This document shows positions 1-12,247 of a stretch of DNA of 64,000 bases, one piece after another. Made by a program: the position numbers and the translations under genes. A model generated the notes under the pieces. That model searched no databases. It was not told the origin of the DNA and saw only the letters and a list, made by a program, of their open reading frames with translations. This DNA is from a virus, in IMG/VR virus record IMGVR_UViG_3300032323_001417, positions 1 to 64,000 of that record; one strand, given 5' to 3'. Within the stretch, counting starts at the first letter, position 1. Each line of letters begins with the position of its first letter.

Positions 1-77
1 ACATAAAACTCTGGCATCTGCTTACTTGTAGGGATAGTCTGTGTGTATTCTACTGTAACGCCTTCTAATGTTTTCAT
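1..77 (-). CDS. Hypothetical protein, N-terminal part (runs off window), leaderless
   Basis: ATG at 77, MKTLEGVTVEYTQ..., open to window edge; 7 nt downstream of the -10 element. Confidence 0.55.
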   Translation of the reverse strand, partial: MKTLEGVTVEYTQTIPTSKQMPEFY

Positions 78-84
78 AGTTCGT

Positions 85-113
85 ATCCTACTACACTTTC
101 TTTGGAATGTCAA
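85..113 (-). promoter_or_regulatory. Canonical sigma-A promoter TTGACA-N17-TAGGAT
   Basis: Perfect -35 at 113-108, 17-nt spacer, -10 at 90-85. Confidence 0.7.
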
Positions 114-324
114 GTCTTGTTAGGTTATAAGCCAGGATTTCTTCTAGCCTCTGATATTCAGCTAATTCTTCTGAACCCTCTTCTGCAAACTCCCAATGTC
201 CAGTAGTTTTATTATAAATAGTTCCGTCACCCTCTTCTAGCATTACGTTGGTGGTTTCAGCATCTACCATGAAAGCTCCCCAGTCCTCGTCATAAACTAC
301 AACCCAATGATGTTGATAACTCAT
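91..324 (-). CDS. Hypothetical acidic protein
   Basis: ORF track; overlaps upstream stop (ATGA). Confidence 0.7.
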   Translation of the reverse strand: MSYQHHWVVVYDEDWGAFMVDAETTNVMLEEGDGTIYNKTTGHWEFAEEGSEELAEYQRLEEILAYNLTRLDIPKKV

Positions 325-488
325 ACTTCAAACTCCTTAAATGTATCTACTACTACTTGACATACATGATCAAGGTTAATAAGTGTTTTGCAAAAATCCA
401 GGTGGGTCAAAAGATTTTCCTGCAACTGTTCTCTAAGTAATTCTAGTGGTAGCACATCAAAGTGTACCTCATCTTGCCAAGTGTTCAT
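321..488 (-). CDS. Hypothetical protein (start revised to MNTWQDE)
   Basis: ATG at 488 coupled to the stop of 485-616; GGAG upstream. Confidence 0.6.
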   Translation of the reverse strand: MNTWQDEVHFDVLPLELLREQLQENLLTHLDFCKTLINLDHVCQVVVDTFKEFEV

Positions 489-616
489 ACTTCTACTTCT
501 CCTAAGTCCATTAGATATTCTTCTTTGCCACATTCTATGCAACTAAATACCATTTCATCTTCATACTCTAGAAAGGTAGCGTCACACATACAGCACTTAA
601 CCTTGTTCATCAACAT
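485..616 (-). CDS. Small Zn-ribbon protein (CCMC...CIEC), 43 aa, not in track
   Basis: Manual translation MLMNKVKCCMCDATF...CIECGKEEYL; fills the gap between neighbours. Confidence 0.65.
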   Translation of the reverse strand: MLMNKVKCCMCDATFLEYEDEMVFSCIECGKEEYLMDLGEVEV

Positions 617-617
617 A

Positions 618-800
618 CTATACCTCGTGTACGATTACGTCTTGTAGGTGCATAACTTCGGGGTCAATCTTGTAATAACTCAAAATGTTCTGTCTTGCTT
701 GTTCAATAATAAACTCATCAGATAAGTCTGGCTCATCAAAAGAAACACTTGTAATCATTACCATAGCCTCTAATACAAACTCTACATTATAGTTATACAT
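618..800 (-). CDS. Hypothetical protein
   Basis: ORF track; tight operon packing. Confidence 0.7.
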   Translation of the reverse strand: MYNYNVEFVLEAMVMITSVSFDEPDLSDEFIIEQARQNILSYYKIDPEVMHLQDVIVHEV

Positions 801-1027
801 TAGTTAATCTCCACTTCTAATCCGTGATACTCTAAAGAAATCATTGTCTGTTCTAAGTCAGCAGAGTCGTCACACTCATCATAGTAGCCAAGGTTCTTAA
901 AATGATTCCAAGCATCATCATTGTCAAATTCTGGGTTCTCTGCTACATACGCTTCCCAGTCTTTTTGATCTATCTTCATTGACCATTGTGATTCAAAAGT
1001 TCCTTGAAAGGTTCCTGTCAAATACAT
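800..1027 (-). CDS. Hypothetical acidic protein
   Basis: ORF track; TAATG coupling. Confidence 0.7.
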   Translation of the reverse strand: MYLTGTFQGTFESQWSMKIDQKDWEAYVAENPEFDNDDAWNHFKNLGYYDECDDSADLEQTMISLEYHGLEVEIN

Positions 1028-1284
1028 TACACTATCTCCAGTCTGTTCTTGGCAAAGAATAGGTCTGTGCCGTCTTCATCTTTAATTGAAATCTGTGCGG
1101 GTACATCAAATTTGTCAAGGAATAAATTATGTTCTATCTGCCATTCTTGATCTTTAACAAATTCAATCATTGCTTCGTGACTAATAGGATAACCATGAAT
1201 ACCATACTCACCTGTTGCCAACATCATTTTAATTAATGCCTCTTCTGAATAAATAATTTCTGTTGTTGCTACTAGATAGGTCAT
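1027..1284 (-). CDS. Hypothetical protein
   Basis: ORF track; coupled stop/start. Confidence 0.7.
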   Translation of the reverse strand: MTYLVATTEIIYSEEALIKMMLATGEYGIHGYPISHEAMIEFVKDQEWQIEHNLFLDKFDVPAQISIKDEDGTDLFFAKNRLEIV

Positions 1285-1451
1285 ACCTTTTTCTCCCTAA
1301 TTACTATTTGAACCATTTCTTCTGTGTTATAAAACTTCTTTACAAAATTATAAGCAGTTTCCCATTGTTCTAATTCAATGCCACCAACATTGTGTAATTC
1401 AACAAAGTGGTCTGCTAACTCACTTAGTAGTGGGTCTGTTACGTCAATCAT
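1281..1451 (-). CDS. Hypothetical protein (start revised to MIDVTDP)
   Basis: AAAGGA RBS before ATG 1451; the track start lies inside the promoter. Confidence 0.65.
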   Translation of the reverse strand: MIDVTDPLLSELADHFVELHNVGGIELEQWETAYNFVKKFYNTEEMVQIVIREKKV

Positions 1452-1592
1452 TTTTGTCCTTTTGTAGGTTGATACTTTGTATCCTATCACAGGGGTCTGA
1501 CATTTTTGCCCAGGCTATTCCAGAGGAGTTCTTAATTGTTCATAAATGACTAATAAGATAAACAGGGGGCGCGGCTCTCAGCTCGTGAGAGT

Positions 1593-1627
1593 GAGCAGTT
1601 TATAGTCTGGTTATGGTGCTCAGGACT
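1593..1627 (-). ncRNA. Putative H-type pseudoknot in 3' UTR (copy A)
   Basis: AGUC CU GAGCA N9 GACU AUAAAC UGCUC; paralog at 2821-2848 with a compensatory pair. Confidence 0.5.
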
Positions 1628-1684
1628 GTCCCCTTTATTTATTCTCCGTGGCTGTGGGAGTTTCTTCCGTTCGGTTGTGTCCTA

Positions 1685-2674
1685 CTAGGCGAAAGCAACT
1701 TCTTTCACAATGGAAAGTAGTTTGTTCTTTTCTGCTGTGATAACTGGGTCAAAGCCTGATGCACTTGCAAGGATTCCCTCGTTGTTGCCATTACGGGCAG
1801 AACGATACCAGTCAAGTCTTTCAGTCAATGTGTTAAAAGCACCCCAAGCAGTATTGTTAATCATTGAATTAGTATCTGATGCAAAAATCTCATCTAACAA
1901 TTCAATCTTGGTTTCCCACTTGGTCATTGCACCCTTTGCATCTTTCTTTGGCATTGGATAAGCCTTTTCAACAATCTTATTGAAAGTATCTTTTGTGATT
2001 TCCTTTTCAATAAGTTCTTGAGCCATTTTGTCAAAAGCATCCATGTAAGTATTAGCAAGACCCAATGCTTCACGAGCAACTAAGATACGACCCTCAAGTG
2101 TTGATGTGTGTCGCATCTTGAAAGACTGCTTAACACCACGAAGAGCCATGTCAAGAGTGTTAGCACACACAACACGAACAGGTGTTACTGATGCACGAAC
2201 AGCAAGTGAACCGTCATGTGATGTGTTTACAAGTAAGTAAGACTTAACAACATCTGCAACGCCACTTGGGTCAAGTACGGTCTCACGCTCAAGAGCAAGA
2301 GAACCAAATACAACACGACCATTCTTTAGTGAACCAGCGGTTTCCCAACGAGCACCGTCAAGAAGATTATCTGCAAAAGCAAATAGTTCTTCATTCTGTA
2401 AAGTCTGGTAACGCTCACCAACAACTGCTAGAACATCTGGGTGTCCGTCTTCTGGGTGGTCACGAACAACAAGAAAGTTAGATTTGCTTGATGTGTAATC
2501 TTCAGGTAGTTGAACATCTTCAAGACGTACATTCCAGTTTGATAAGTTTGCTATGTCCATAACTTCACTTGTGGTGTGCTCTTCTGTAACAACAGTTCCT
2601 AGACCATGCCAAGCAGGTTCACGAAATGAATACATAGAACCAACACCGTTTATAACTTCGACTGCATCAGCCAT
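1685..2674 (-). CDS. DUF932 (phage/plasmid TIGR03299-like) protein
   Basis: REPAWHGLG, ETAGSL, NTSHDGS, TPVRVVCANTL motifs typical of DUF932. Confidence 0.85.
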   Translation of the reverse strand: MADAVEVINGVGSMYSFREPAWHGLGTVVTEEHTTSEVMDIANLSNWNVRLEDVQLPEDYTSSKSNFLVVRDHPEDGHPDVLAVVGERYQTLQNEELFAFADNLLDGARWETAGSLKNGRVVFGSLALERETVLDPSGVADVVKSYLLVNTSHDGSLAVRASVTPVRVVCANTLDMALRGVKQSFKMRHTSTLEGRILVAREALGLANTYMDAFDKMAQELIEKEITKDTFNKIVEKAYPMPKKDAKGAMTKWETKIELLDEIFASDTNSMINNTAWGAFNTLTERLDWYRSARNGNNEGILASASGFDPVITAEKNKLLSIVKEVAFA

Positions 2675-2820
2675 TTTTTCTCCTATTAGGTAGTTTGTTT
2701 AATAGTCTTACTATAACACAAAGGTCTGACATTTCCTAATCTCATCAGACATTTCAGGGGCATTTTTTAATCTTCTTAAATAACGATTTGATAACGGGGC
2801 GCGGATCAAGCTTTGAGAGG

Positions 2821-2848
2821 GGGCAGTTTATTGTCAATGCCCAGGACT
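2821..2848 (-). ncRNA. Putative H-type pseudoknot in 3' UTR (copy B)
   Basis: AGUC CU GGGCA UU GACA AUAAAC UGCCC. Confidence 0.5.
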
Positions 2849-2867
2849 TTCCTACCTACTAGGAAAC

Positions 2868-3377
2868 CTAGTACCTTTCGTCTATTGAATCAATGTCTGC
2901 ATCAGATTCTAAAATCTCATACTTAGATTCATTAGAAGAGATTTCAATGTCAAAGTCATAGATGCTTAGGTCAGACACATCTTCATTAACTGGAATGGAA
3001 ACAGTTGCTTTGATTGTTACATTGAATTCAACTTCAACTTCTTTAGATAAATCAATACCAAAGATGTTTGCAATTTCAGTTGCGTGTTCTTCACCAATCT
3101 CATCAAAGTTCTCAACAAGGTATTCTTTTAACTTGTCTTGTGCTCGTGAGTTACGGTTGTTGGTTTCTTGCACTGCATCTAGTCTCCAGTAAGTTCTGGA
3201 AATGTCGTCTGCATTTTCTACTTCAAACTTTGAATCTGAAGGTGTGCCATAGTAGTAGCCCTTGCGTACTAAGATAGTTGCCTTTGGGTCATACGCTGGT
3301 GTTACTGCCACTTGGTCTGTCATTGGTGTTATAGTTGCTGGTATTCCGAATGTTGGCTCACTTGTTGTGAATTCCAC
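2868..3377 (-). CDS. Hypothetical protein
   Basis: GTG start with AAGGAG RBS; own promoter at 3411-3432. Confidence 0.75.
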   Translation of the reverse strand: MEFTTSEPTFGIPATITPMTDQVAVTPAYDPKATILVRKGYYYGTPSDSKFEVENADDISRTYWRLDAVQETNNRNSRAQDKLKEYLVENFDEIGEEHATEIANIFGIDLSKEVEVEFNVTIKATVSIPVNEDVSDLSIYDFDIEISSNESKYEILESDADIDSIDERY

Positions 3378-3379
3378 GT

Positions 3380-4174
3380 TTATTCTCCTTGTAGGTTGGT
3401 TGTTGAAACTAGTGTATCAGAGAGGTCTGACAATTCTTGCCATTCCTCTAATTCCGTGTCCCACTTGTATTTAGTGGTATCTATTGGGCAATCTTCAAAA
3501 GCATACTCAATGTCTTCATACTGACATTGACACTCTCTTTCTAATGCCTCGTAGTCTGCGTGGCTTGATGGAATGTCGTACTCATTACAGGCAATGTCTT
3601 CTCCACCTAAGAATGTGCAACTGCCACCCCAACCTTGCTCTTCCTCATACTCATAGTCAAACTCAAGAGTTGGATACTGTTCTGATAGTTTCATTAGAAC
3701 CTCACCAACAGGACTCCAAGCGGTTTGGAAATGGTACATAACAGAACCATCATCATTAACTGTTTTAATAGTGTTAGGATAATCATTATTATTATCTACT
3801 GCTACGTCCCACTTAGTTCCCCAGTTACGGCAGTTCCAATGATACCAGTCTTGGTCTTCTTTCATAGAGCGAACAAACTCTTGCATAAAAGATTCGCCAT
3901 CCATTTTGCCATCTTCATTTACTTTGATGTTCTTGTTACCCTTGAAAGTATCTGTTTCATAGTATGCTTCAAGGTCTGTTGGTTTTACAATGTTCCAAAA
4001 AGCAAATACAGGATTGTCATAGTGCTGTTCGTCAGCAACCCAAACAATTTCATTGTTTTCAAATTTGTGTTCAGGAAAATGTTTTACGAATGGCTGGTTA
4101 AGTTGTGCAACCATCTTATCTAATTCTGACTGTTCGCCAGATACAACTAATGTGTTAAATACCCAGTTTGGCAT
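3380..4174 (-). CDS. DUF1281/YubB-like ferredoxin-fold protein
   Basis: MPNWVFN, WYHWNCRNWGTKWD, FQTAWSP motifs. Confidence 0.75.
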   Translation of the reverse strand: MPNWVFNTLVVSGEQSELDKMVAQLNQPFVKHFPEHKFENNEIVWVADEQHYDNPVFAFWNIVKPTDLEAYYETDTFKGNKNIKVNEDGKMDGESFMQEFVRSMKEDQDWYHWNCRNWGTKWDVAVDNNNDYPNTIKTVNDDGSVMYHFQTAWSPVGEVLMKLSEQYPTLEFDYEYEEEQGWGGSCTFLGGEDIACNEYDIPSSHADYEALERECQCQYEDIEYAFEDCPIDTTKYKWDTELEEWQELSDLSDTLVSTTNLQGE

Positions 4175-4289
4175 TGTTACTTCTTTCTAGTAGGTTATGA
4201 TGAAATCATACCACAAGGGTCTGACATTTTCAGGGGCTCTTCTTAAACTTCTTAAATAAGTTATCCACAGGGGGCGCGGCTTAGCTCTG

Positions 4290-4363
4290 CGATCTGGATG
4301 GGACTTGAACCCACGACCTCCGCCGTGACAGGGCGGTGCTCTAACCAACTGAGCCACCAGACC
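4290..4363 (-). tRNA. tRNA-Asp(GTC), CCA not encoded
   Basis: Acceptor stem GGTCTGG/CCAGATC, D-arm, anticodon arm CCGCC-CTGTCAC-GGCGG, GGTTCAAGTC T-loop. Confidence 0.93.
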
Positions 4364-4447
4364 AAAGGTGTGCCAGGATTTAGATCTCTATCATTCAATC
4401 ACCAACAACCTGGCGGTATTGGCTACCTTTTAATTAATTGAGTTACC

Positions 4448-4924
4448 TTACCAAGAGGCTTGGTACTCAAAATAGTCGAACTTACTATTGAGGCATCTGT
4501 CAATAATACCAATAGTGTCATTCAAATCTCCAAAGTAATACTCATCATAGTTAGTAGAACCAAAGAAGAATCCACTACCTGTTGGCAATTCTTCTTCTGC
4601 TACTTCTGGATTAGCAATTACATTTATGCAAGTTTCTTTTAGAGTTTCTAAATCTTCTCTACGAACTGTAATTGGCTGACATTCATCAACACCATCTGCT
4701 AAGTTATTTACAAACCAATGATGAATCATGTTTGACTTACGCCAGTAACCCATTGGTACATCAACGGTAATTCCAGCAAAGCCAGTAGTGTCAATTACAT
4801 CTTCTAATTCAAGACTGCTGACAATTTCATTGAATAGAGGATTTATTGTGTCCTCATCAGTTTGACGATTAAAGTTGTGACGGTATACATACTCACTTGC
4901 ACGAAGGTACATGTCTAGTCCCAT
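4448..4924 (-). CDS. Conserved phage protein (MGLDMYL...YWRK...YQASW family)
   Basis: GGAG RBS before ATG 4924; motifs common in phage early regions. Confidence 0.75.
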   Translation of the reverse strand: MGLDMYLRASEYVYRHNFNRQTDEDTINPLFNEIVSSLELEDVIDTTGFAGITVDVPMGYWRKSNMIHHWFVNNLADGVDECQPITVRREDLETLKETCINVIANPEVAEEELPTGSGFFFGSTNYDEYYFGDLNDTIGIIDRCLNSKFDYFEYQASW

Positions 4925-4981
4925 TGTGGACTCCATTCTTTTGTAGGTAAGTTTATCTTAGCAGAGAGGTCTGACAGTTTT

Positions 4982-5016
4982 AAGGTGGGGTGCAAGGGTA
5001 AGAAACACCCCACCTA
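4982..5016 (-). terminator. Hairpin terminator
   Basis: AGGTGGGGTG/CACCCCACCT stem right after the stop at 5029. Confidence 0.55.
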
Positions 5017-5028
5017 AACTTGTCTTAA

Positions 5029-5184
5029 CTACTTAGCAGTAGTCCAACGGTCTTGACCATTTACATCAAGACGGATACGCATTGAGCCGTTAGCGTTCTT
5101 TACGACTTCCTGAACGATACCAGTTACTTTGCTCTTTGCTGTTACGAACTGTGAGCCAACAGTTGGGGCGATTGTCTTTGCCAT
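5029..5184 (-). CDS. Small basic beta-rich protein, 51 aa, not in track
   Basis: MAKTIAPTVGSQFVTAKSKVTGIVQEVV...; own promoter and terminator. Confidence 0.7.
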   Translation of the reverse strand: MAKTIAPTVGSQFVTAKSKVTGIVQEVVKNANGSMRIRLDVNGQDRWTTAK

Positions 5185-5283
5185 TTGCTTCTCTTTTCTT
5201 TGGGGGAATTGTTTCCCGTTGTTGTTATAGTAATACTATACCAGAAAGGTCTGACAAAATCAAATCCATTCAGGTAATTCCAG

Positions 5284-5299
5284 GGTGATAAAGATCACT
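5284..5299. promoter_or_regulatory. CRP/GlxR-like site
   Basis: GGTGA-TAAAGA-TCACT. Confidence 0.45.
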
Positions 5300-5348
5300 T
5301 CTTAAATGCTTGACAAATATGGGATCTTGGGGCGCGGCTTCGCAGCTC

Positions 5349-5477
5349 CTACACCCTTTCCCTTTCTCGCAGGTATTCAATGTAAATTTCAGTAGATGCC
5401 ATTTCACTCATTAGTCTATCTAACTTAGTAAATGTATCTTCTTCAATTACTTCTGGTTTCTTATTAAATAATTTCAT
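5349..5477 (-). CDS. Hypothetical protein (start revised to MKLFNKK)
   Basis: ATGA coupling with 5474-5623. Confidence 0.55.
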   Translation of the reverse strand: MKLFNKKPEVIEEDTFTKLDRLMSEMASTEIYIEYLRERERV

Positions 5478-5623
5478 AGCCATTCTGCTAAATCTCCATC
5501 TGCTATTTCTGAATAGTCCATACCTTGTGATTCTGCAATTGCTTCCCACAATTGTTCTTCTGTGTAGTTTCCATCTGGATACCACTCTGTTAAAATACCG
5601 TATAAATCTTTCATCTTACTCAT
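5474..5623 (-). CDS. Small acidic protein, 49 aa, not in track
   Basis: MSKMKDLYGILTEWYPDG...; TAATG coupling. Confidence 0.6.
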   Translation of the reverse strand: MSKMKDLYGILTEWYPDGNYTEEQLWEAIAESQGMDYSEIADGDLAEWL

Positions 5624-5961
5624 TATGCAAATACCTTTCCATACAATTCAACTGTGCTACCGTCATCTAAATCGGTAAGTAGATTGTTTACTAAATCTAA
5701 TACAACTGTCTTATCAAAATTGTTACCAATTTCTGAACGGTTAATTGCATAGATACCAAAACCAGTTTCATCTAAAACATAGTCTTTAATCAGGTGTGAG
5801 ATAACCATACGGGTAAAGTATGAATAGTCACCCTTGCGTGGCTGTGCGTGTACCAATGCATCAATTAAATCATTTTCCCAATTTGATTCACCCCAATGTG
5901 AATACAAGACGGTTAATGATTCTGTTCCATCATCAAATACGAAATTAATTCTTGCACCCAT
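5623..5961 (-). CDS. Conserved phage hypothetical protein (MGARINF...LYSHWG)
   Basis: ORF track; operon context. Confidence 0.75.
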   Translation of the reverse strand: MGARINFVFDDGTESLTVLYSHWGESNWENDLIDALVHAQPRKGDYSYFTRMVISHLIKDYVLDETGFGIYAINRSEIGNNFDKTVVLDLVNNLLTDLDDGSTVELYGKVFA

Positions 5962-5962
5962 T

Positions 5963-6079
5963 TTAGTAACCTGCTTCCTTTAACATTTTTTCAATTGCTT
6001 GCAATTCTTCGGTAGACAATTTCTCAATTGCCTTTTCATCTATAACACCCTCAAATAAGTTTATTAGTAGTTCACTCAT
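5963..6079 (-). CDS. Small helical protein, 38 aa, not in track
   Basis: MSELLINLFEGVIDEKAIEKL...; GAGGA RBS. Confidence 0.6.
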   Translation of the reverse strand: MSELLINLFEGVIDEKAIEKLSTEELQAIEKMLKEAGY

Positions 6080-6080
6080 T

Positions 6081-6332
6081 TTATTCCTCTTCCCAACTAG
6101 CAAAATTATTCATAGTGCAAAAACAATCGTTACACATACCAGAAATAAATCTTTCACGAATACCTGCATCATAGTCTTTCAATACATCTTGACAATAAGC
6201 ACCTTGATTGTATGCAAATAATTGTTCTGATGAAATAGAAACGGTTTTGGTTGTGCCACAATCAGGGCAAGGTAATGATGTAACGACATAACGGTCATTC
6301 ATCACTTTCATTGGATTAGTCAAAGTGAACAT
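6081..6332 (-). CDS. Zn-binding hypothetical protein (CPDC...CNDC)
   Basis: ORF track; GAAAGGA RBS; promoter at 6363-6384. Confidence 0.75.
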   Translation of the reverse strand: MFTLTNPMKVMNDRYVVTSLPCPDCGTTKTVSISSEQLFAYNQGAYCQDVLKDYDAGIRERFISGMCNDCFCTMNNFASWEEE

Positions 6333-6463
6333 AGTGTTCCTTTCGTTTGTAGGTATGATTTCATCATAGCATAAGGGTCTGACATTTTCTCAGGGGGTCC
6401 AGGCTATTTTCTTAAAAGTCTTAAAAAAGTTATCCACAGGGGGGCGCGGCTCCCCAGCTGCCC

Positions 6464-6601
6464 CTACTTGCCGTCAGTCCACCTAGAACTATTTACAAAA
6501 TCGGAATTAGAATTCTTTTTCCATTTTATTGCATCAAGAAATGCTAAGGCTGGTAGAAATAATAAACTTGCTAGAAATAATAGAAACAGAAATTTTATCA
6601 T
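6464..6601 (-). CDS. Small membrane/secreted protein, 45 aa, not in track
   Basis: MIKFLFLLFLASLLFLPALAFL hydrophobic N-terminus; TAATG coupling. Confidence 0.55.
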   Translation of the reverse strand: MIKFLFLLFLASLLFLPALAFLDAIKWKKNSNSDFVNSSRWTDGK

Positions 6602-6732
6602 TAGTCAAACAATTCCTTTTTGTGTTTTGGTTTACGCTTGTATGCTTTTTTATTTTTGTGTGGAACGGCTGCATTACTCCTACGCAACTCAAGCCTAGCC
6701 CTAAGTTGTTCAGGTGTTGCTATAAATTTCAT
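6601..6732 (-). CDS. Small basic protein with ArfA-like C-terminal motif, 43 aa, not in track
   Basis: MKFIATPEQLRARLELRRSNAAVPHKNKKAYKRKPKHKKELFD; ATGA coupling. Confidence 0.65.
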   Translation of the reverse strand: MKFIATPEQLRARLELRRSNAAVPHKNKKAYKRKPKHKKELFD

Positions 6733-7013
6733 TCTTCCTCCCATTCAGGTTCAGATACCCAAGCATCTAAACGATGACCCTCAACAATTGCAGAGGCAGG
6801 TGCATAGTTACTACCACGCCACGAAATTCCTTGAGGCAATTCAATTTCTGCAAAGTAGTCCTCATTCCAAATTGCGTTAATAGCATCTATGCAAGGCTGT
6901 ACCATTGAGGACGGTACTGGAGGATAGCAATTGTATTGCAAGTGTAGGTTAATCTGTGCCTCAAGTGGCATTGTATCCATAGTGGATAATTCAGTTGCAA
7001 AGTTTAGTCCCAT
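6729..7013 (-). CDS. Hypothetical protein (start MGLNFAT)
   Basis: ORF track; promoter at 7046-7067. Confidence 0.75.
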   Translation of the reverse strand: MGLNFATELSTMDTMPLEAQINLHLQYNCYPPVPSSMVQPCIDAINAIWNEDYFAEIELPQGISWRGSNYAPASAIVEGHRLDAWVSEPEWEEE

Positions 7014-7069
7014 TTTATTTCTCATTTCTTGTAGGTAGGGTATTTATTCTATCAGATAGGTCTGACATT

Positions 7070-7261
7070 TTAGAATGGTGGGAATGACCAACAAGGCACA
7101 AATTCCTCATAGGTCTTGTTTATTCTTTTGATAACTATTTCAGCAAACATTGGTTCAACGCCTGACGATGCAGACTTGACGGGCTGACCAATGTATTCTA
7201 AATACATCTTGACATCTTTTGAAGGAATGTCTAACTGCTTAGCAATTTCATAGACTCTCAT
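7070..7261 (-). CDS. Stand-alone translation initiation factor IF-2 N-terminal domain protein
   Basis: MRVYEIAKQLDIPSKDV...VKSASSGVE matches the IF2_N pattern RVYELAKELG..SK...V.SASS; GGAGG RBS. Confidence 0.75.
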   Translation of the reverse strand: MRVYEIAKQLDIPSKDVKMYLEYIGQPVKSASSGVEPMFAEIVIKRINKTYEEFVPCWSFPPF

Positions 7262-7410
7262 AGTGCCTCCTCAAAGTCAGGGGATTCAAAGGTGTATCCA
7301 TACACTCTTTCAAATTCATCAACAGTCATCTTACCCTTGTAGGTATCACAGCACACAACCTGTTCAGCAAACATTTCTTGCTCACAGAAACAACAAATAA
7401 ATTCTGTCAT
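7258..7410 (-). CDS. Small Cys-rich protein, 50 aa, not in track
   Basis: MTEFICCFCEQEMFAEQVVCCDTYKG...; GAGGA RBS; promoter at 7435-7456. Confidence 0.65.
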   Translation of the reverse strand: MTEFICCFCEQEMFAEQVVCCDTYKGKMTVDEFERVYGYTFESPDFEEAL

Positions 7411-7538
7411 TTTATTTCCTCTCTTTATAAGAACACTCTAGCATAGGGGTCTGACAATTTTTTCAGGGCGATTATCCACAACTTCTTAACAGCCTGTGGA
7501 TAACGGGGGCGCGGCTCTTTTTAGCTGAGCCTGGTGTG

Positions 7539-8075
7539 CTAGGCTGCACTCCCCCTATACACAACCCAGATTAGTGCTTGAATAGTGCGAGGTGTCATTG
7601 CAGTTTCTTGAGCAATTTTTTCAATAGCCTCAGACAGTTGGCTGTAGTCTGTTTTGTTAGGGCTGTCTTTTGTTAGACCTGCTGATCGCATCATCCAAAT
7701 GTCAATCGTGATTGCATTTTCATCACCTGCAATGTTGCGAGCAAATGAATTTGTTTTCTTTCCATTAAGTGCATCGAAACCAATTTCTAAAGCACGTTGA
7801 GCCATTTTAAGATTGTTAGGTAGGCAACGCATGGTGTCATCGCCATGAGCGAATCTAAGTGCCTGACGAACGTTAGTTGACCAACGCTGACGAGGTGAGA
7901 ACGCTGACACAATACTAGCCGCTTGTTCAAGCGATACATCCATGCCTCGTGTCTTGTAAATGTCTACAATCTCATGGGCAACGGCTTCAGCATCTGCATA
8001 CCATTGGGTTGCTTGTTCGATCTGTGATGCCTTAGCACTCTTAACAATTTGGCGGTAGGTATTTTCGTAGTTCAT
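7539..8075 (-). CDS. Phage protein with possible HhH-GPD/glycosylase-like fold
   Basis: WY...SAFSPRQRW..N, GKKTNSF..NI.G....TIDIWM motifs; start revised to MNYENTY. Confidence 0.6.
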   Translation of the reverse strand: MNYENTYRQIVKSAKASQIEQATQWYADAEAVAHEIVDIYKTRGMDVSLEQAASIVSAFSPRQRWSTNVRQALRFAHGDDTMRCLPNNLKMAQRALEIGFDALNGKKTNSFARNIAGDENAITIDIWMMRSAGLTKDSPNKTDYSQLSEAIEKIAQETAMTPRTIQALIWVVYRGSAA

Positions 8076-8326
8076 GTCTATCTCATTTCTAGTAGGTATC
8101 TCTGATACTAGCACACACCCCTGACAAAAACAAGACTATTAGACATTATTTTTATAAAATTTTCAGGGCAATTTCAGGGGATTTCTTAACTATCGTAACA
8201 AGGGTTATCCACAGAGCCGCGCCCCCTCGGGCGTGTCGCAGCTGTCTAGTCTGTGTATTTATCCACTAGCAAATAAATAAAAGTGGCAAGGGATAAAATT
8301 AAAACCCAAGAATAAAAACTATTCAT

Positions 8327-8479
8327 TTAGTATTCACCTCTCAACACAAATGCAAACGAGTGTTTTCCTAAATCAAAAATCAGGGAAGTATTTTTGGTTT
8401 CTGTTTTTTTATTGTAGTAAGTTGAGAAACTAATTCCAAGAATAAAAGTTCCGTCAATTTTATTATGTACAAATCTCAT
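8327..8479 (-). CDS. Hypothetical protein, 50 aa, not in track
   Basis: MRFVHNKIDGTFILGISF...; TAATG coupling. Confidence 0.55.
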   Translation of the reverse strand: MRFVHNKIDGTFILGISFSTYYNKKTETKNTSLIFDLGKHSFAFVLRGEY

Positions 8480-8661
8480 TACACACCTACCGCATCTAAA
8501 AACTTTTGTTCATCAAAGTTTGGATTATCGCTTGCAAATAAATCTGCAAAATCTTCTGCAATACTTTTTACAAGTGAAGAAATTAAAATGTTGTCTTGTC
8601 CTGCTTCTGCATAAGAATTAAAAATCTTTGCGGTTGCTATGTAGTCTTTGCGTGTCATCAT
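8479..8661 (-). CDS. Conserved phage hypothetical protein (MTRKDY...DNPNFD..KF)
   Basis: ORF track, start revised. Confidence 0.7.
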   Translation of the reverse strand: MMTRKDYIATAKIFNSYAEAGQDNILISSLVKSIAEDFADLFASDNPNFDEQKFLDAVGV

Positions 8662-8662
8662 T

Positions 8663-8830
8663 TTATTTTCCTGCCTTAGATAGTTCAAATTCGATTGCTA
8701 ACTTTGTGTAGGCTTGTTCCCACATTCTTTTATTAGCCTTTAGTTGTGTAACGCTTACGACTAAGTAAGCCAAAGCCCCAGCCAATAGGCTAGGTAGTAA
8801 GATGATTAGTGCTATTTGTATTAGTGACAT
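8663..8830 (-). CDS. Small membrane protein, 55 aa, not in track
   Basis: MSLIQIALIILLPSLLAGALAYLVV transmembrane helix; GAAAGG RBS; own promoter. Confidence 0.65.
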   Translation of the reverse strand: MSLIQIALIILLPSLLAGALAYLVVSVTQLKANKRMWEQAYTKLAIEFELSKAGK

Positions 8831-8885
8831 TGTATGCCCTTTCTTGTTGTTGTTAGTTTGATTCTAGCATAGGGGTCTGACAGTT

Positions 8886-9035
8886 TTACCTGTAGACACG
8901 CCTAGTCAAAAGTTGGATTTGTAGATTGTAGTAGTCAATCATTCGTTGATTAGTTGGGTCGTGCTTAAGGATTAACTCTAAGCCGTTTACTGCATCTACT
9001 AGCAGTCTTGCATTCTTGATTTTAGTGTAAGCCAT
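8886..9035 (-). CDS. Hypothetical protein, 49 aa, not in track
   Basis: MAYTKIKNARLLVDAVNG...; GAAAGG RBS; promoter at 9069-9090. Confidence 0.65.
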   Translation of the reverse strand: MAYTKIKNARLLVDAVNGLELILKHDPTNQRMIDYYNLQIQLLTRRVYR

Positions 9036-9215
9036 TTTGGTCTACCTTTCGTTTTATCTTATGCTTTCAGCATACACTAGGGGTCTGACATTTTTGGTAT
9101 TTCAGGGCGTGTCTAAGATGAACAGTAGGTAAACAATAATTAACAAGTTATCCACAGGATTCCAGGGCATTTCTTAACAATCGTAACAAAAGTTATCCAC
9201 AGGGGCGCGGCTCGT

Positions 9216-9231
9216 TCGAACATTTGTTCTA
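9216..9231. promoter_or_regulatory. LexA (SOS) box, Gram-positive/actinobacterial type
   Basis: TCGAAC-ATTT-GTTCTA versus consensus TCGAAC-N4-GTTCGA. Confidence 0.6.
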
Positions 9232-9245
9232 TGATGTACATCACA
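9230..9245. promoter_or_regulatory. CRP/GlxR-like site
   Basis: TATGA-TGTACA-TCACA versus TGTGA-N6-TCACA. Confidence 0.5.
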
Positions 9246-9310
9246 AAAATAGTGTCTCAAATAGTGAGATTCAGGTAGAATTTGTCAGTCAGGTGTGGTA
9301 AGTTATTACT

Positions 9311-9546
9311 ATAAAGAAAATTAAATAGTGGTTAAAAGGGATTAGGGCTTAGAAAAAAGTTTAGACCGCAAGTCTAAATGTGATTGAAAGTCCAAGTCAA
9401 ACGGAGTCTACGCTGACAGAGGTCAGTATTCACCGTCTCAGTTTCACGCTAGTGTCCTAGTCCCCTTTAACCATTATTAAATCGCTTAGTGTGAGCCTAG
9501 CAAATAAGCAACGAAAGTTGATGAGCCTAGCAAATAAAACTAAGCA
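9311..9546 (+). ncRNA. Putative structured non-coding RNA or long 5' leader
   Basis: Promoter at 9283-9304; 25-bp helix 9324-9348/9454-9478 with 3 G-U pairs; inner hairpins; second symmetric domain 9484-9545; no ORF. Confidence 0.65.
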
Positions 9547-9563
9547 TAACGAAAGGATTCATT

Positions 9564-9686
9564 ATGAATGAATTACTAATTGAAGACATCACAGATGAAG
9601 AATGTTTTGACTGTGGAGATAAGCTAACATCATGGGAATTTATTTTTTGTGTTATGTGTGATGGAATGGAACAATACGAAATCTAA
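9564..9686 (+). CDS. Zn-finger microprotein (CxxC-x11-CxxC), 40 aa, not in track
   Basis: MNELLIEDITDEECFDCGDKLTSWEFIFCVMCD; GAAAGGA RBS; paralog of 10335-10481. Confidence 0.7.
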   Translation: MNELLIEDITDEECFDCGDKLTSWEFIFCVMCDGMEQYEI

Positions 9687-9879
9687 AAAAGTCCAGGGGA
9701 TTTTAAAATTATCGTAACAAAGATAATAAAAAAATTCCGCGCCTCGTTTTCCACAGGTTGTACACATCTGTGGATAAAAGAGTTCATCTACTGTTAACCT
9801 ACGACACGCCCTATTTGGCAGAAATTGTCAGGGATGTATGCAATACTAAAGGTATTAGATAAACGAAAGAGAGAACAAA

Positions 9880-10086
9880 ATGAACTACTGTTTCTTTTGC
9901 GGTTGGGATACCGAAACCCAATTCAATGTCTGCTATACCTGCAAGGCTATAACAGATGTTGAATACACCTACACCCCTGACGTGTGCGGTGATGATGCTT
10001 GCTATGTAGTAGGCAACGAACTAAATCTTGACGGAGATTGCAATCACCTAACAGAATTCTACCAACTAGCAGACCTGACAGCCTAA
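9880..10086 (+). CDS. Cys-rich Zn-binding protein
   Basis: CFFC...CYTC; promoter at 9826-9847. Confidence 0.7.
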   Translation: MNYCFFCGWDTETQFNVCYTCKAITDVEYTYTPDVCGDDACYVVGNELNLDGDCNHLTEFYQLADLTA

Positions 10087-10140
10087 AAACTGTCAGACCT
10101 ACCTGCTAGATTAAAACTACCTACTAAGAAAGAGAACAAA

Positions 10141-10329
10141 ATGTTTTTATTCAATCTACAAGCCCCACTAGTATTCATTGCAGTATTCTCATTACCTGCA
10201 CTACTACTAGAACTACAACTACTAGTGATTGGCTTTAACTTTATGTCTGCCAATGTGATGATAGCAACCGTTGCTATTGGTCTACTATCTGCAATAGGTG
10301 CAGTAGTTATCGAAATGATTGAGGGGTAA
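10141..10329 (+). CDS. Small membrane protein (2 TM)
   Basis: Hydrophobic ORF; promoter at 10091-10112. Confidence 0.7.
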   Translation: MFLFNLQAPLVFIAVFSLPALLLELQLLVIGFNFMSANVMIATVAIGLLSAIGAVVIEMIEG

Positions 10330-10334
10330 TAACA

Positions 10335-10481
10335 ATGAATGAATTAGCATTTGAAAACATTACAAAAAATAAGTGCATCACCTGTGATGATAAACTAACG
10401 GCTTGGGAAATCAATTTCTGCATTATGTGTGAGTCAGACCAAGAAATCGAAAACTTTTTTGATGATGATGATGACTTGTAG
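10335..10481 (+). CDS. Zn-finger microprotein, 48 aa, not in track
   Basis: MNELAFENITKNKCITCDDKLTAWEINFCIMCE; GAGG RBS. Confidence 0.7.
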   Translation: MNELAFENITKNKCITCDDKLTAWEINFCIMCESDQEIENFFDDDDDL

Positions 10482-10764
10482 AATCTAAAATTTTATTGCT
10501 TGCAGAATCTAAAATATTTTTGTCTATTAAATAAAACTATTAACAATTAGTTATGGGCTCACTAATAAAAAGGTGAGTCTATTCTAAAATCATGCATCAT
10601 ACACATTAACAAAATATTCAGATTTTCTTCAAAATGGGATCTAGCTGCAAATATAAAAATATTCAGATTTTGCGGGAAAGTGAATATATATCTCATTATG
10701 TGAGATGATATGTTACAATTGTGTTACAAATAATTTAATAGTTCAATGTTTCTGGCGAGCTGAT

Positions 10765-10793
10765 TTGACAAGCATTAAAAATGCAATTACACT
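10765..10793 (+). promoter_or_regulatory. Canonical sigma-A promoter TTGACA-N17-TACACT
   Basis: Perfect -35, 17-nt spacer. Confidence 0.6.
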
Positions 10794-10874
10794 ATGAGTG
10801 CAGCGAATCAAAAAAAGTCTCAGAAAAGTTGGGGGCAGGGGAATGAAATTATTAAAAAACAAAGAGAGAAACAA

Positions 10875-10955
10875 ATGAGTAATCAAGACTATGCTAGATA
10901 CATCTTCTGGATTGTATTAACAGCAATTTTATTGTCTACACTATCTGGTAGCTAA
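10875..10955 (+). CDS. Putative 26-aa membrane peptide
   Basis: MSNQDYARYIFWIVLTAILLSTLSGS; purine-rich leader; downstream of promoter. Confidence 0.4.
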   Translation: MSNQDYARYIFWIVLTAILLSTLSGS

Positions 10956-11230
10956 TATATATCTTTGTATAATTTCGGGGTTAATTAAATTCATTTCTGG
11001 TCATATGCGTTAGCATCCATTATTATTCTTTATTAACATATTGACAATATAGACATATCTGACATATCTTCATATAGGGGATAATTCTGCATATTTATAA
11101 ATCCCCCCAAAAATCCTACATATATAACGGAGTTATAAGGTGTTGATGGGTATACTATTTTGCCGAATTTTTGCGTTTTTAATTTGCGGATTTTTTGCGA
11201 GTTTTTTAAAAATGGTATAATTAAATCATT

Positions 11231-12247
11231 ATGGCAACAACAAGAGTATTTAGAACAAGTTCAACTCCAACAACTCAAACAGGTTTTAGAAATAGAATTA
11301 TTAATGGTGATTTTAGAATTGATCAAAGAAATAATGGAGCACTTAAAAATAACAGCTCACCAAATACAGCACTTGCGACAACATTTGGTGCAGATAGATG
11401 GTTGGTGTCTGAACAGGTTACTGGAACTGGATTTAGCCAGAGAGCCTCTGATGGAACTGGTGCTGACAAGTATTATTTATCTATTTCTCGCCCATCAAGT
11501 TTAAATGCATTAATAATTGCACAAAGAATTGAGGCTATAAACAGCTATGATTTGGCTGGAAAAACGGTAACTCTTTCTTTTAGAGCAGCAATTTTGGGAG
11601 GGTACACTTCACTATCTTGGAAAGCTTCCTATGCAAATACCACAGATTCTTTTGGATCGTTTTCTTCTCCAACAAAAACACAGATTGCTACTGGAAACGT
11701 AACTGTTGGTTCTAGCTTTAATTCATATTCAGCAACCTTTACTGTGCCTTCTGCAGCCACAACTGGAATAGAAATATCTTTTTATAATACAAACATCTCT
11801 ATTGATGCGACTACTCTTAGAATAAGCAACGTTCAATTAGAGCTAGGATCAGTCGCCACTCCATTTGAACAGCGTCCTATCGGTACAGAACTAGCGTTGT
11901 GTCAAAGGTATTATCAAAATATTGTAACTCCTAATGCAACAACAGACTTTAATGGTTTAATGGTTAGAGAAAGTACTACTCAGGCTCAAGCTTCTGTATA
12001 TCTTCCAGTAAGTATGAGAATTACTCCAGCACTAGTTGGTTCTTATTTAGGAAGATCTGTTTTTAGAGACACTTCTTTCAATGTTGCAGCAGGAGCTAAC
12101 TCTGCAGTATCTGTTAGCTCATCTGGACCTAGTGTTAGCTGGATAACTCTTATAATAACTCATGCAGCAGTTGCTGGAACTTATATATATGCAGAATGGG
12201 ATTTATTAAATACAACTACAAATCTTGGCTTGAACGCAGAATTATAA
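11231..12247 (+). CDS. Tail fibre/minor virion protein with carbohydrate-binding-like module
   Basis: FRNRIINGDFRIDQR and VQLELGSVATPFEQRPIGTELALCQRYY motifs. Confidence 0.75.
   Translation: MATTRVFRTSSTPTTQTGFRNRIINGDFRIDQRNNGALKNNSSPNTALATTFGADRWLVSEQVTGTGFSQRASDGTGADKYYLSISRPSSLNALIIAQRIEAINSYDLAGKTVTLSFRAAILGGYTSLSWKASYANTTDSFGSFSSPTKTQIATGNVTVGSSFNSYSATFTVPSAATTGIEISFYNTNISIDATTLRISNVQLELGSVATPFEQRPIGTELALCQRYYQNIVTPNATTDFNGLMVRESTTQAQASVYLPVSMRITPALVGSYLGRSVFRDTSFNVAAGANSAVSVSSSGPSVSWITLIITHAAVAGTYIYAEWDLLNTTTNLGLNAEL

Follow-up and report, generated by a model that had tools for sequence, protein, structure and literature searches.

Candidate PafBC-type promoters in the putative early arm of an uncultured lake actinophage

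IMG/VR virus record IMGVR_UViG_3300032323_001417 is a 101,664-bp phage sequence with a 124-bp end repeat, a G+C content (GC) of 35.5% and a CheckV completeness of 100. We analyzed its first 64 kb, hereafter the window, and give further coordinates as genome positions. The window opens with a leftward block of ~25 small genes (91..9035, minus strand) that runs across the record ends to ~genome 99326 and is studded with promoters in which TGTCAG (the box), exactly 10 nt and a -10 element TAnnnT follow one another. The original prediction had read these promoters as wiring the early region to PafBC, the actinobacterial activator of host DNA-damage promoters. Judged purely by gene content, the genes of the block are probably early; the proteins of the arm mostly belong to no known family. 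Contigs of one metatranscriptome overlap arm genes (e.g. 2040-2684 and 4511-4925), although these contigs carry no strand or start information and the library may hold DNA.

The window contains 14 exact matches to TGTCAG-N10-TAnnnT, compared with 0.80 on average and no more than 4 in shuffled sequences; 12 lie on the minus strand at 1481-9090 and two on the plus strand, at 9283 and 10091. A fifteenth site (9826-9847, plus strand) has the imperfect -10 element AATACT. The claimed total of 15 sites, 12 minus and 3 plus with an exact -10 in 14, was thereby reproduced, and the two sites quoted as examples (8882-8861 and 4226-4205) read as written. A sixteenth site lies in the region of the record ends (L002:16545-16566), and because it lies across these ends the promoter arm is contiguous: all 16 sites fall within ~11.6 kb, with none in the other ~90 kb of the genome (Table 1). 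The upstream hexamer is TGTCAG at 16/16 sites. Among the window sites it continues as TGTCAGACC in 12 of 15, and TGn stands directly before the -10 in 14 of 15, in agreement with the extended TG claimed for most. With a transcription start assumed 7 nt downstream of the -10, the hexamer would occupy -28 to -23, which fits the predicted placement at about -26 with no room for a -35 element. The sequence at the -35 position of the window sites matches TTGACA at 0-4 of 6 bases (mean ~2.7), and only 2 of the 16 sites passed a 9-of-12 consensus sigma-70 scan; the sites of this genome thus appear to lack a real -35. Genes elsewhere in the genome have TGnTATAAT promoters with a perfect -10, no box and often a position near the start codon.

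The sites are co-oriented with the ORFs that they precede; for 12 of them, the called start codon lies 18-50 nt past the -10. At sites 1502, 8126 and 100566, the caller of open reading frames (ORFs) chose another start, and an ATG found by eye lies ~30, 22 and 8 nt downstream, respectively; no ORF stands behind the promoter at 9283. An Rfam search over 1-11500 returned a tRNA only.

Table 1. Box-containing promoters and the tRNA gene of the arm (window positions unless marked as genome positions).
Element	Position	Strand	Context
TGTCAG ACCCCTGTGA TAGGAT	1481..1502	-	upstream of a small ORF, ATG ~1450
TGTCAG ACCTTTGTGT TATAGT	2710..2731	-	35 nt upstream of DUF932 gene 1685-2674
TGTCAG ACCTCTCTGA TACACT	3411..3432	-	upstream of 169-aa ORF 2868-3377
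TGTCAG ACCCTTGTGG TATGAT	4205..4226	-	upstream of Api92-like/DUF1281_C gene 3380-4174
tRNA-Asp (GTC)	4289..4363	-	inside the leftward block
TGTCAG ACCTCTCTGC TAAGAT	4955..4976	-	upstream of 162-aa ORF 4448-4936
TGTCAG ACCTTTCTGG TATAGT	5235..5256	-	upstream of ORF 5029-5184
TGTCAG ACCCTTATGC TATGAT	6363..6384	-	upstream of ORF 6081-6332 and following genes
TGTCAG ACCTATCTGA TAGAAT	7046..7067	-	upstream of ORF 6729-7025
TGTCAG ACCCCTATGC TAGAGT	7435..7456	-	upstream of ORFs 7258-7410 and 7070-7261 (IF2_N domain)
TGTCAG GGGTGTGTGC TAGTAT	8105..8126	-	upstream of DUF7178 gene (to 7539; ATG ~8075)
TGTCAG ACCCCTATGC TAGAAT	8861..8882	-	upstream of ORFs 8663-8830, 8479-8688 and 8327-8479
TGTCAG ACCCCTAGTG TATGCT	9069..9090	-	first unit of the leftward arm, ORF 8886-9035
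TGTCAG TCAGGTGTGG TAAGTT	9283..9304	+	followed by ~570 nt without an ORF
TGTCAG GGATGTATGC AATACT	9826..9847	+	imperfect -10; upstream of ORF 9880-10086
TGTCAG ACCTACCTGC TAGATT	10091..10112	+	upstream of ORFs 10141-10329 and 10335-10481
16th promoter	genome 100545..100566	-	in the continuation of the leftward block

As the original prediction had proposed, the motif has the sequence and geometry of the PafBC (RecA-NDp) type. The in vivo consensus for PafBC, tGTCgg(N10)tA(N3)T, places its 5′ part at -23 to -28; its GTC triplet, read by PafB residues R46 and R50, is strictly conserved across actinobacterial recA promoters, and no -35 consensus was found at PafBC promoters (PMC8635444). As a predicted binding site, the phage motif equals this published site in sequence, position, spacing and asymmetry.

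To follow the motif beyond a single genome, as the original prediction had suggested, we examined relatives among the 52 related contigs in IMG/VR. Fifty of them (L003-L052), collected with the DUF932 gene as bait down to ~60% protein identity, carry the motif at densities of up to 1.35 sites per kb and at a rigid spacing: N10 occurs in 252 unique contexts versus 6 at N9 and 6 at N11. A profile over 271 unique sites comprises a run of A at -4 to -2, TGTCAG, the bases A/C/C (0.73, 0.83 and 0.79), TG of the extended -10 (0.88 and 0.90) and TAnnnT. Among 37 sites that keep the extended -10 and have one mismatch, TGTCAC (10), TGTCTG (10) and TGTCGG (4) were the commonest variants; because 27 of the 37 differ at hexamer position 5 or 6, TGTC is the fixed core. 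The rigid spacing and the location of these variable positions both agree with the published PafBC site. In more distant relatives the box continues as TGG, TCC, CCC or TGC, and TGTCGG also occurs. Two further contigs (L053 and L054; 48-49% GC), whose DUF932 is 48% identical, have neither the box nor a clear replacement motif.

The phage encodes a portal, a maturation protease, an HK97-type capsid protein and a 2,537-aa probable tape measure, together with a class II ribonucleotide reductase, DnaB, primase, Pol III alpha, RecA, RuvC, FtsZ and glycan enzymes; no integrase or repressor was seen among the scanned proteins. It also has a WhiB gene (genome 85252-85533). In tblastn comparisons with Streptomyces cluster BE phages (Stanwilliamsviridae) and Rhodococcus phages, the portal was 52%, the capsid 33-40% and WhiB 38-45% identical. 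Because WhiB is present and the portal, capsid and WhiB match only actinophages, the predicted host is an actinobacterium, as had been proposed. Mycobacterium smegmatis, the species originally named for reporter assays, does not hold up as the host: the low GC of the phage points to what is probably a low-GC lake actinobacterium and not a Mycobacterium. The sequencing runs containing phage DNA are lake-water and freshwater metagenomes. A scan of genome contigs with the phage GMP reductase as bait returned only a metagenome-assembled genome of Clostridia at 40% identity, and the matches listed for FtsZ in a protein search were all phage homologues. The phage FtsZ (311 aa; genome 88429-89364, L002:4429-5364) is shorter than bacterial FtsZ, which usually has 380-450 aa. 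Its matches listed number at least 120, all with at least 85% identity and similar length and from lake and freshwater metagenomes, which argues that the phage family is very abundant.

We then turned to the host side, for which metagenome contigs were collected by a recA DNA pattern that proved not to be specific to Actinobacteria; of the 120 loci obtained, the majority came from Bacteroidota or other phyla, and this majority provided the negative controls. A search of RecA representatives had yielded mostly phage-type RecAs and no usable actinobacterial bait. On actinobacterial recA contigs the box stands 126-136 nt before the FGKG codon, preceded immediately by a run of A and, at a greater distance, by a GAAC-N4-GTTC LexA box. 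The P1 box of recA reads TGTCGG-N10-TAGGTT in L122 (69% GC) and CGTCGG-N10-TACCGT in L149 (66% GC); L079 (68% GC), counted apart from the distance measurements, has TGTCGG-N10-TAGCGT upstream of recA. At 44% GC, L141 and L069 carry TGTCAT ACCCCCAACT TATGGT (TGTCAT-ACCCC), and L180, at 45% GC, carries TGTCAC ACCAATGATT TATGGT (TGTCAC-ACC). The recA P1 of these two low-GC lineages thus reads TGTCAY-ACC, like the TGTCAGACC of the phage. Five actinobacterial contigs, among them those of the two low-GC lineages, count as having the motif at recA P1. Both L141 and L180 show the gene order rnj-ftsK-rimO-pgsA-cinA-msrB-recA-miaB-miaA-dapF-hflX-dapC-dapE-lexA, which is that of M. tuberculosis and which identifies the low-GC recA contigs as actinobacterial by predicted gene order; for L141, a protein atlas pointed only weakly to Actinomycetota. 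In L063 (53% GC), whose RecA is closest to the actinobacterial ones, a LexA box is present and a P1 box is absent.

A matrix trained only on 215 phage sites and scanned over both strands of each contig ranked recA P1 at the top in L141, L069, L122 and L149, and no control contig had its top match near recA. In L180, recA P1 came second; the first match was TGTCAC ACCCGTTTGG GAGAAT, which ends 6 nt short of the start codon (ATG) of a LysM-domain gene. This gene and lexA are transcribed divergently and flank four LexA boxes (L180:11480-11650), and its TGTCAC-ACC box is set for a leaderless transcript. The arrangement is the lexA/Rv2719c layout of M. tuberculosis in a 45%-GC lineage, and in M. 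tuberculosis Rv2719c is induced mainly via RecA-NDp (PMC3381160). Because both recA P1 and the Rv2719c-like promoter carry TGTCAY or TGTCAC followed by ACC, low-GC actinobacteria appear to use a box close to that of the phage, including the ACC, at two classic PafBC-type promoters. The RecA-NDp/PafBC promoter type would accordingly extend to actinobacteria of 44-45% GC.

Taken together, these observations lead us to the view, which we hold to be rather probable, that the phage carries PafBC-type promoters working in two modes, with basal transcription from the extended -10 and a boost once single-stranded DNA activates PafBC. The housekeeping RNA polymerase of the host, with sigma A, would read the TAnnnT -10, mostly with its extended TGn, together with a -26 element, TGTCAG(ACC), that would be the one read by PafBC on host DNA-damage promoters. 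PafBC is activated by single-stranded DNA bound to its WYL domains (PMC11804915) and is placed between sigma A region 4 and DNA (PMC8635444); by such sigma adaptation, the activated protein would turn on the small takeover genes of the block or raise their expression. Possible triggers are phage replication intermediates, ends of phage DNA after processing, and damage to the DNA of the host, for instance by ultraviolet light in surface water. From sequence we infer PafBC binding at these sites, the early timing, the trigger and the degree of PafBC dependence. A study reportedly links pafBC to mycobacteriophage resistance.

Several observations weigh against this dual-mode reading. In the more distant relatives, TTGACA precedes the box by 1-3 nt at many sites and stands 17-19 bp from the -10, and the orthologous DUF932 promoter in L017, L039, L047 and L051 reads TTGACA/TTGACT-N17-TAnnnT with no box. 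Because these four lineages have a -35 without the box, the box is replaceable by a -35 and not essential for expression; it may boost transcription rather than being obligatory. In the cultured cousins, namely Streptomyces cluster BE phages and Rhodococcus phage Dorin, the motif occurs 0, 3 and 1 times versus 1, 5 and 1 times for the reversed pattern, although Streptomyces and Rhodococcus have PafBC. The two low-GC recA P1 sites score 10.7 and 11.1 bits with the phage matrix, no higher than the top chance matches elsewhere, so that their position, not their score, is the telling feature. Moreover, ~90% of the phage sites have an extended -10 and these two host sites do not, and an extended -10 can work without an upstream element. 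A phage relying on an activator that is off in healthy cells would also require a trigger, at which we can only guess. What stands of the proposed PafBC wiring is the sequence and geometry of the sites, the host group, the lack of a WYL or sigma gene in the phage and the matching box in low-GC actinobacterial contigs; the orthologous promoters with TTGACA and no box limit it, as does the extended -10, which the two low-GC recA P1 sites lack.

The lack of such a phage gene bears on whether the activator could be the phage's own. The original prediction had named WYL and sigma genes as candidates to be sought, and neither was found: in six-frame searches of the whole 101.6-kb record, no WYL domain matched at E<=1 and the best Sigma70_r4 match, at 11.9 bits, fell below the cut-off. 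None of 30 arm proteins searched, small and large, showed a DNA-binding family. A phage-encoded or virion-delivered factor that reads TGTCAG(ACC) at -26 and adapts sigma A, its PafBC-like geometry being coincidental, could nevertheless be WhiB or an unannotated small protein; WhiB binds sigma region 4 in actinobacteria. Such a factor would account for the restriction of the motif to this phage family and its absence from the cultured cousins, for an ACC extension more uniform than at host sites and for the hybrid promoter that the WhiB operon has of its own, and there is room for it among the many arm proteins without a known family. It leaves unexplained, however, why the same box, ACC and A run occur at recA and Rv2719c-like promoters of low-GC actinobacteria; the genes expressed first, if these are such genes, must be read by host factors; and no WYL, sigma or helix-turn-helix family emerged from the phage searches or the arm proteins. 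We therefore consider a factor of this kind quite unlikely.

Ordinary sigma A promoters with an extended -10, in which the box is a repressor operator (for phage shut-off or for a host protein) or a hitchhiking cassette sequence with little effect on initiation, seem to us unlikely as well. TGn-TAnnnT alone can drive transcription, relatives have TTGACA 17-19 bp from the -10, some orthologues do without the box, and the cassettes share TTATCCACA pairs and ACCTACWA, suggesting that whole units were copied. Against this, across 252 unique contexts the flanks have diverged while every base of the box and its fixed 10-nt distance are preserved. The box is also asymmetric, unlike most operators, and equals a known activator site in sequence and position, a site that host damage promoters also carry. 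That the sites serve mainly as decoys is highly improbable. Sixteen boxes per genome, multiplied by replication, could soak up activated PafBC and blunt the host damage response, and PafBC levels do not rise upon damage (PMC6789036); yet the sites are placed as working promoters before genes, which makes any decoy role secondary. Direct control by LexA finds no footing either, as the window has a single GAAC-N4-GTTC (SOS) box, a count at chance level.

Other features of the arm accompany the promoters. A DnaA-box-like word, TTATCCACA, has 9 copies in the window versus 0.85 expected, 8 of them in the early arm (region 4261-9777). Some copies form facing pairs (7472/7495) just upstream of promoters and adjoin a GC-rich word, GAGCCGCGCCCC; the pairs, this word and the promoters make up repeated control cassettes. 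The word ACCTAC(A/T)A occurs 12 times versus 4 expected (642-10126), with 10 copies in the early arm, and 8 of these 10 lie in 5′ leaders, between the predicted transcription start and the start codon. In the leaders of 4976 and 7067, and possibly 8126, it stands only 3-4 nt from the ATG without a Shine-Dalgarno sequence and might act as a signal in the leader or for translation. The divergent hub that separates the 9090(-) promoter from the 9283(+) promoter contains a single LexA-box-like GAACATTTGTTC (9218-9229); its placement resembles that of the LexA box upstream of host recA P1, and one match to GAAC-N4-GTTC in 64 kb versus 0.54 expected is at chance level. The WhiB-containing operon has, at genome ~84370-84436 (L002), the hybrid promoter TTGACA-tt-TGTCAG-N9-TATAAT, in which the -35 and -10 are canonical and the box is one base nearer than in the early class. 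The 63-aa protein encoded at 7070-7261(-) consists solely of an IF2 N-terminal domain (Pfam IF2_N, E=2.3e-7). Another arm gene (genome 99326-99889, minus strand; L002:15326-15889) has a weak match to a proteasome subunit (PF00227, E=1.2e-4, below the cut-off) that is too weak to be relied upon; it is of interest given the link between PafBC and the Pup-proteasome locus.

It is known that some phages respond to the host's SOS repressor, LexA. We found no paper describing phage promoters of the present kind or phage use of PafBC by sigma adaptation, and the original prediction likewise knew of no such description. If real, this strategy would give lytic phages a further, novel means of timing their program, and the phage would supply a natural collection of strong promoters of the PafBC type that could be studied; they may also give a sequence clue to the hosts of abundant uncultured lake phages. 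A bolder version, in which an abundant lake actinophage family uses PafBC as the ignition key of takeover, infection itself or sunlight damage to the host is the transcription signal and the boxes drain PafBC from the host regulon, strikes us as doubtful. Were it true, the PafB specificity of each host lineage would be mirrored in the box variant (ACC versus TGG, TCC or CCC in relatives), which could then be used to mark hosts.

Compared with known systems, the phage promoters most resemble PafBC-dependent (RecA-NDp, recA P1-type) promoters, with which they share a -26 element, an invariant GTC and exactly 10 nt to TAnnnT (PMC8635444, PMC11804915), as well as an asymmetric site, no apparent -35 in this genome and an upstream A run like that at the recA P1 sites found here. 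Unlike the host promoters, they precede small genes without known function instead of repair genes, have positions 5-9 fixed as AG-ACC and add an extended -10, and PafBC binding to them is only predicted. The closest cultured relatives, the Streptomyces cluster BE phages and Rhodococcus phage Dorin, have genomes of 126-137 kb, soil actinobacterial hosts and no enrichment of the motif, whereas this phage has 101.6 kb and an enriched motif. LexA-wired promoters such as those of Bacillus phage GIL01 (PMC4551915) likewise couple phage transcription to host DNA-damage sensing; there, however, a repressor is released in a lysogeny switch, whereas here a putative activator site stands at ~16 promoters. 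The middle promoters of T4, with MotA/AsiA ("sigma appropriation"), similarly place a factor between sigma region 4 and an upstream box that replaces the -35. T4 supplies its own factors and remodels sigma, whereas our searches yielded no phage factor and the box corresponds to that of a host activator.

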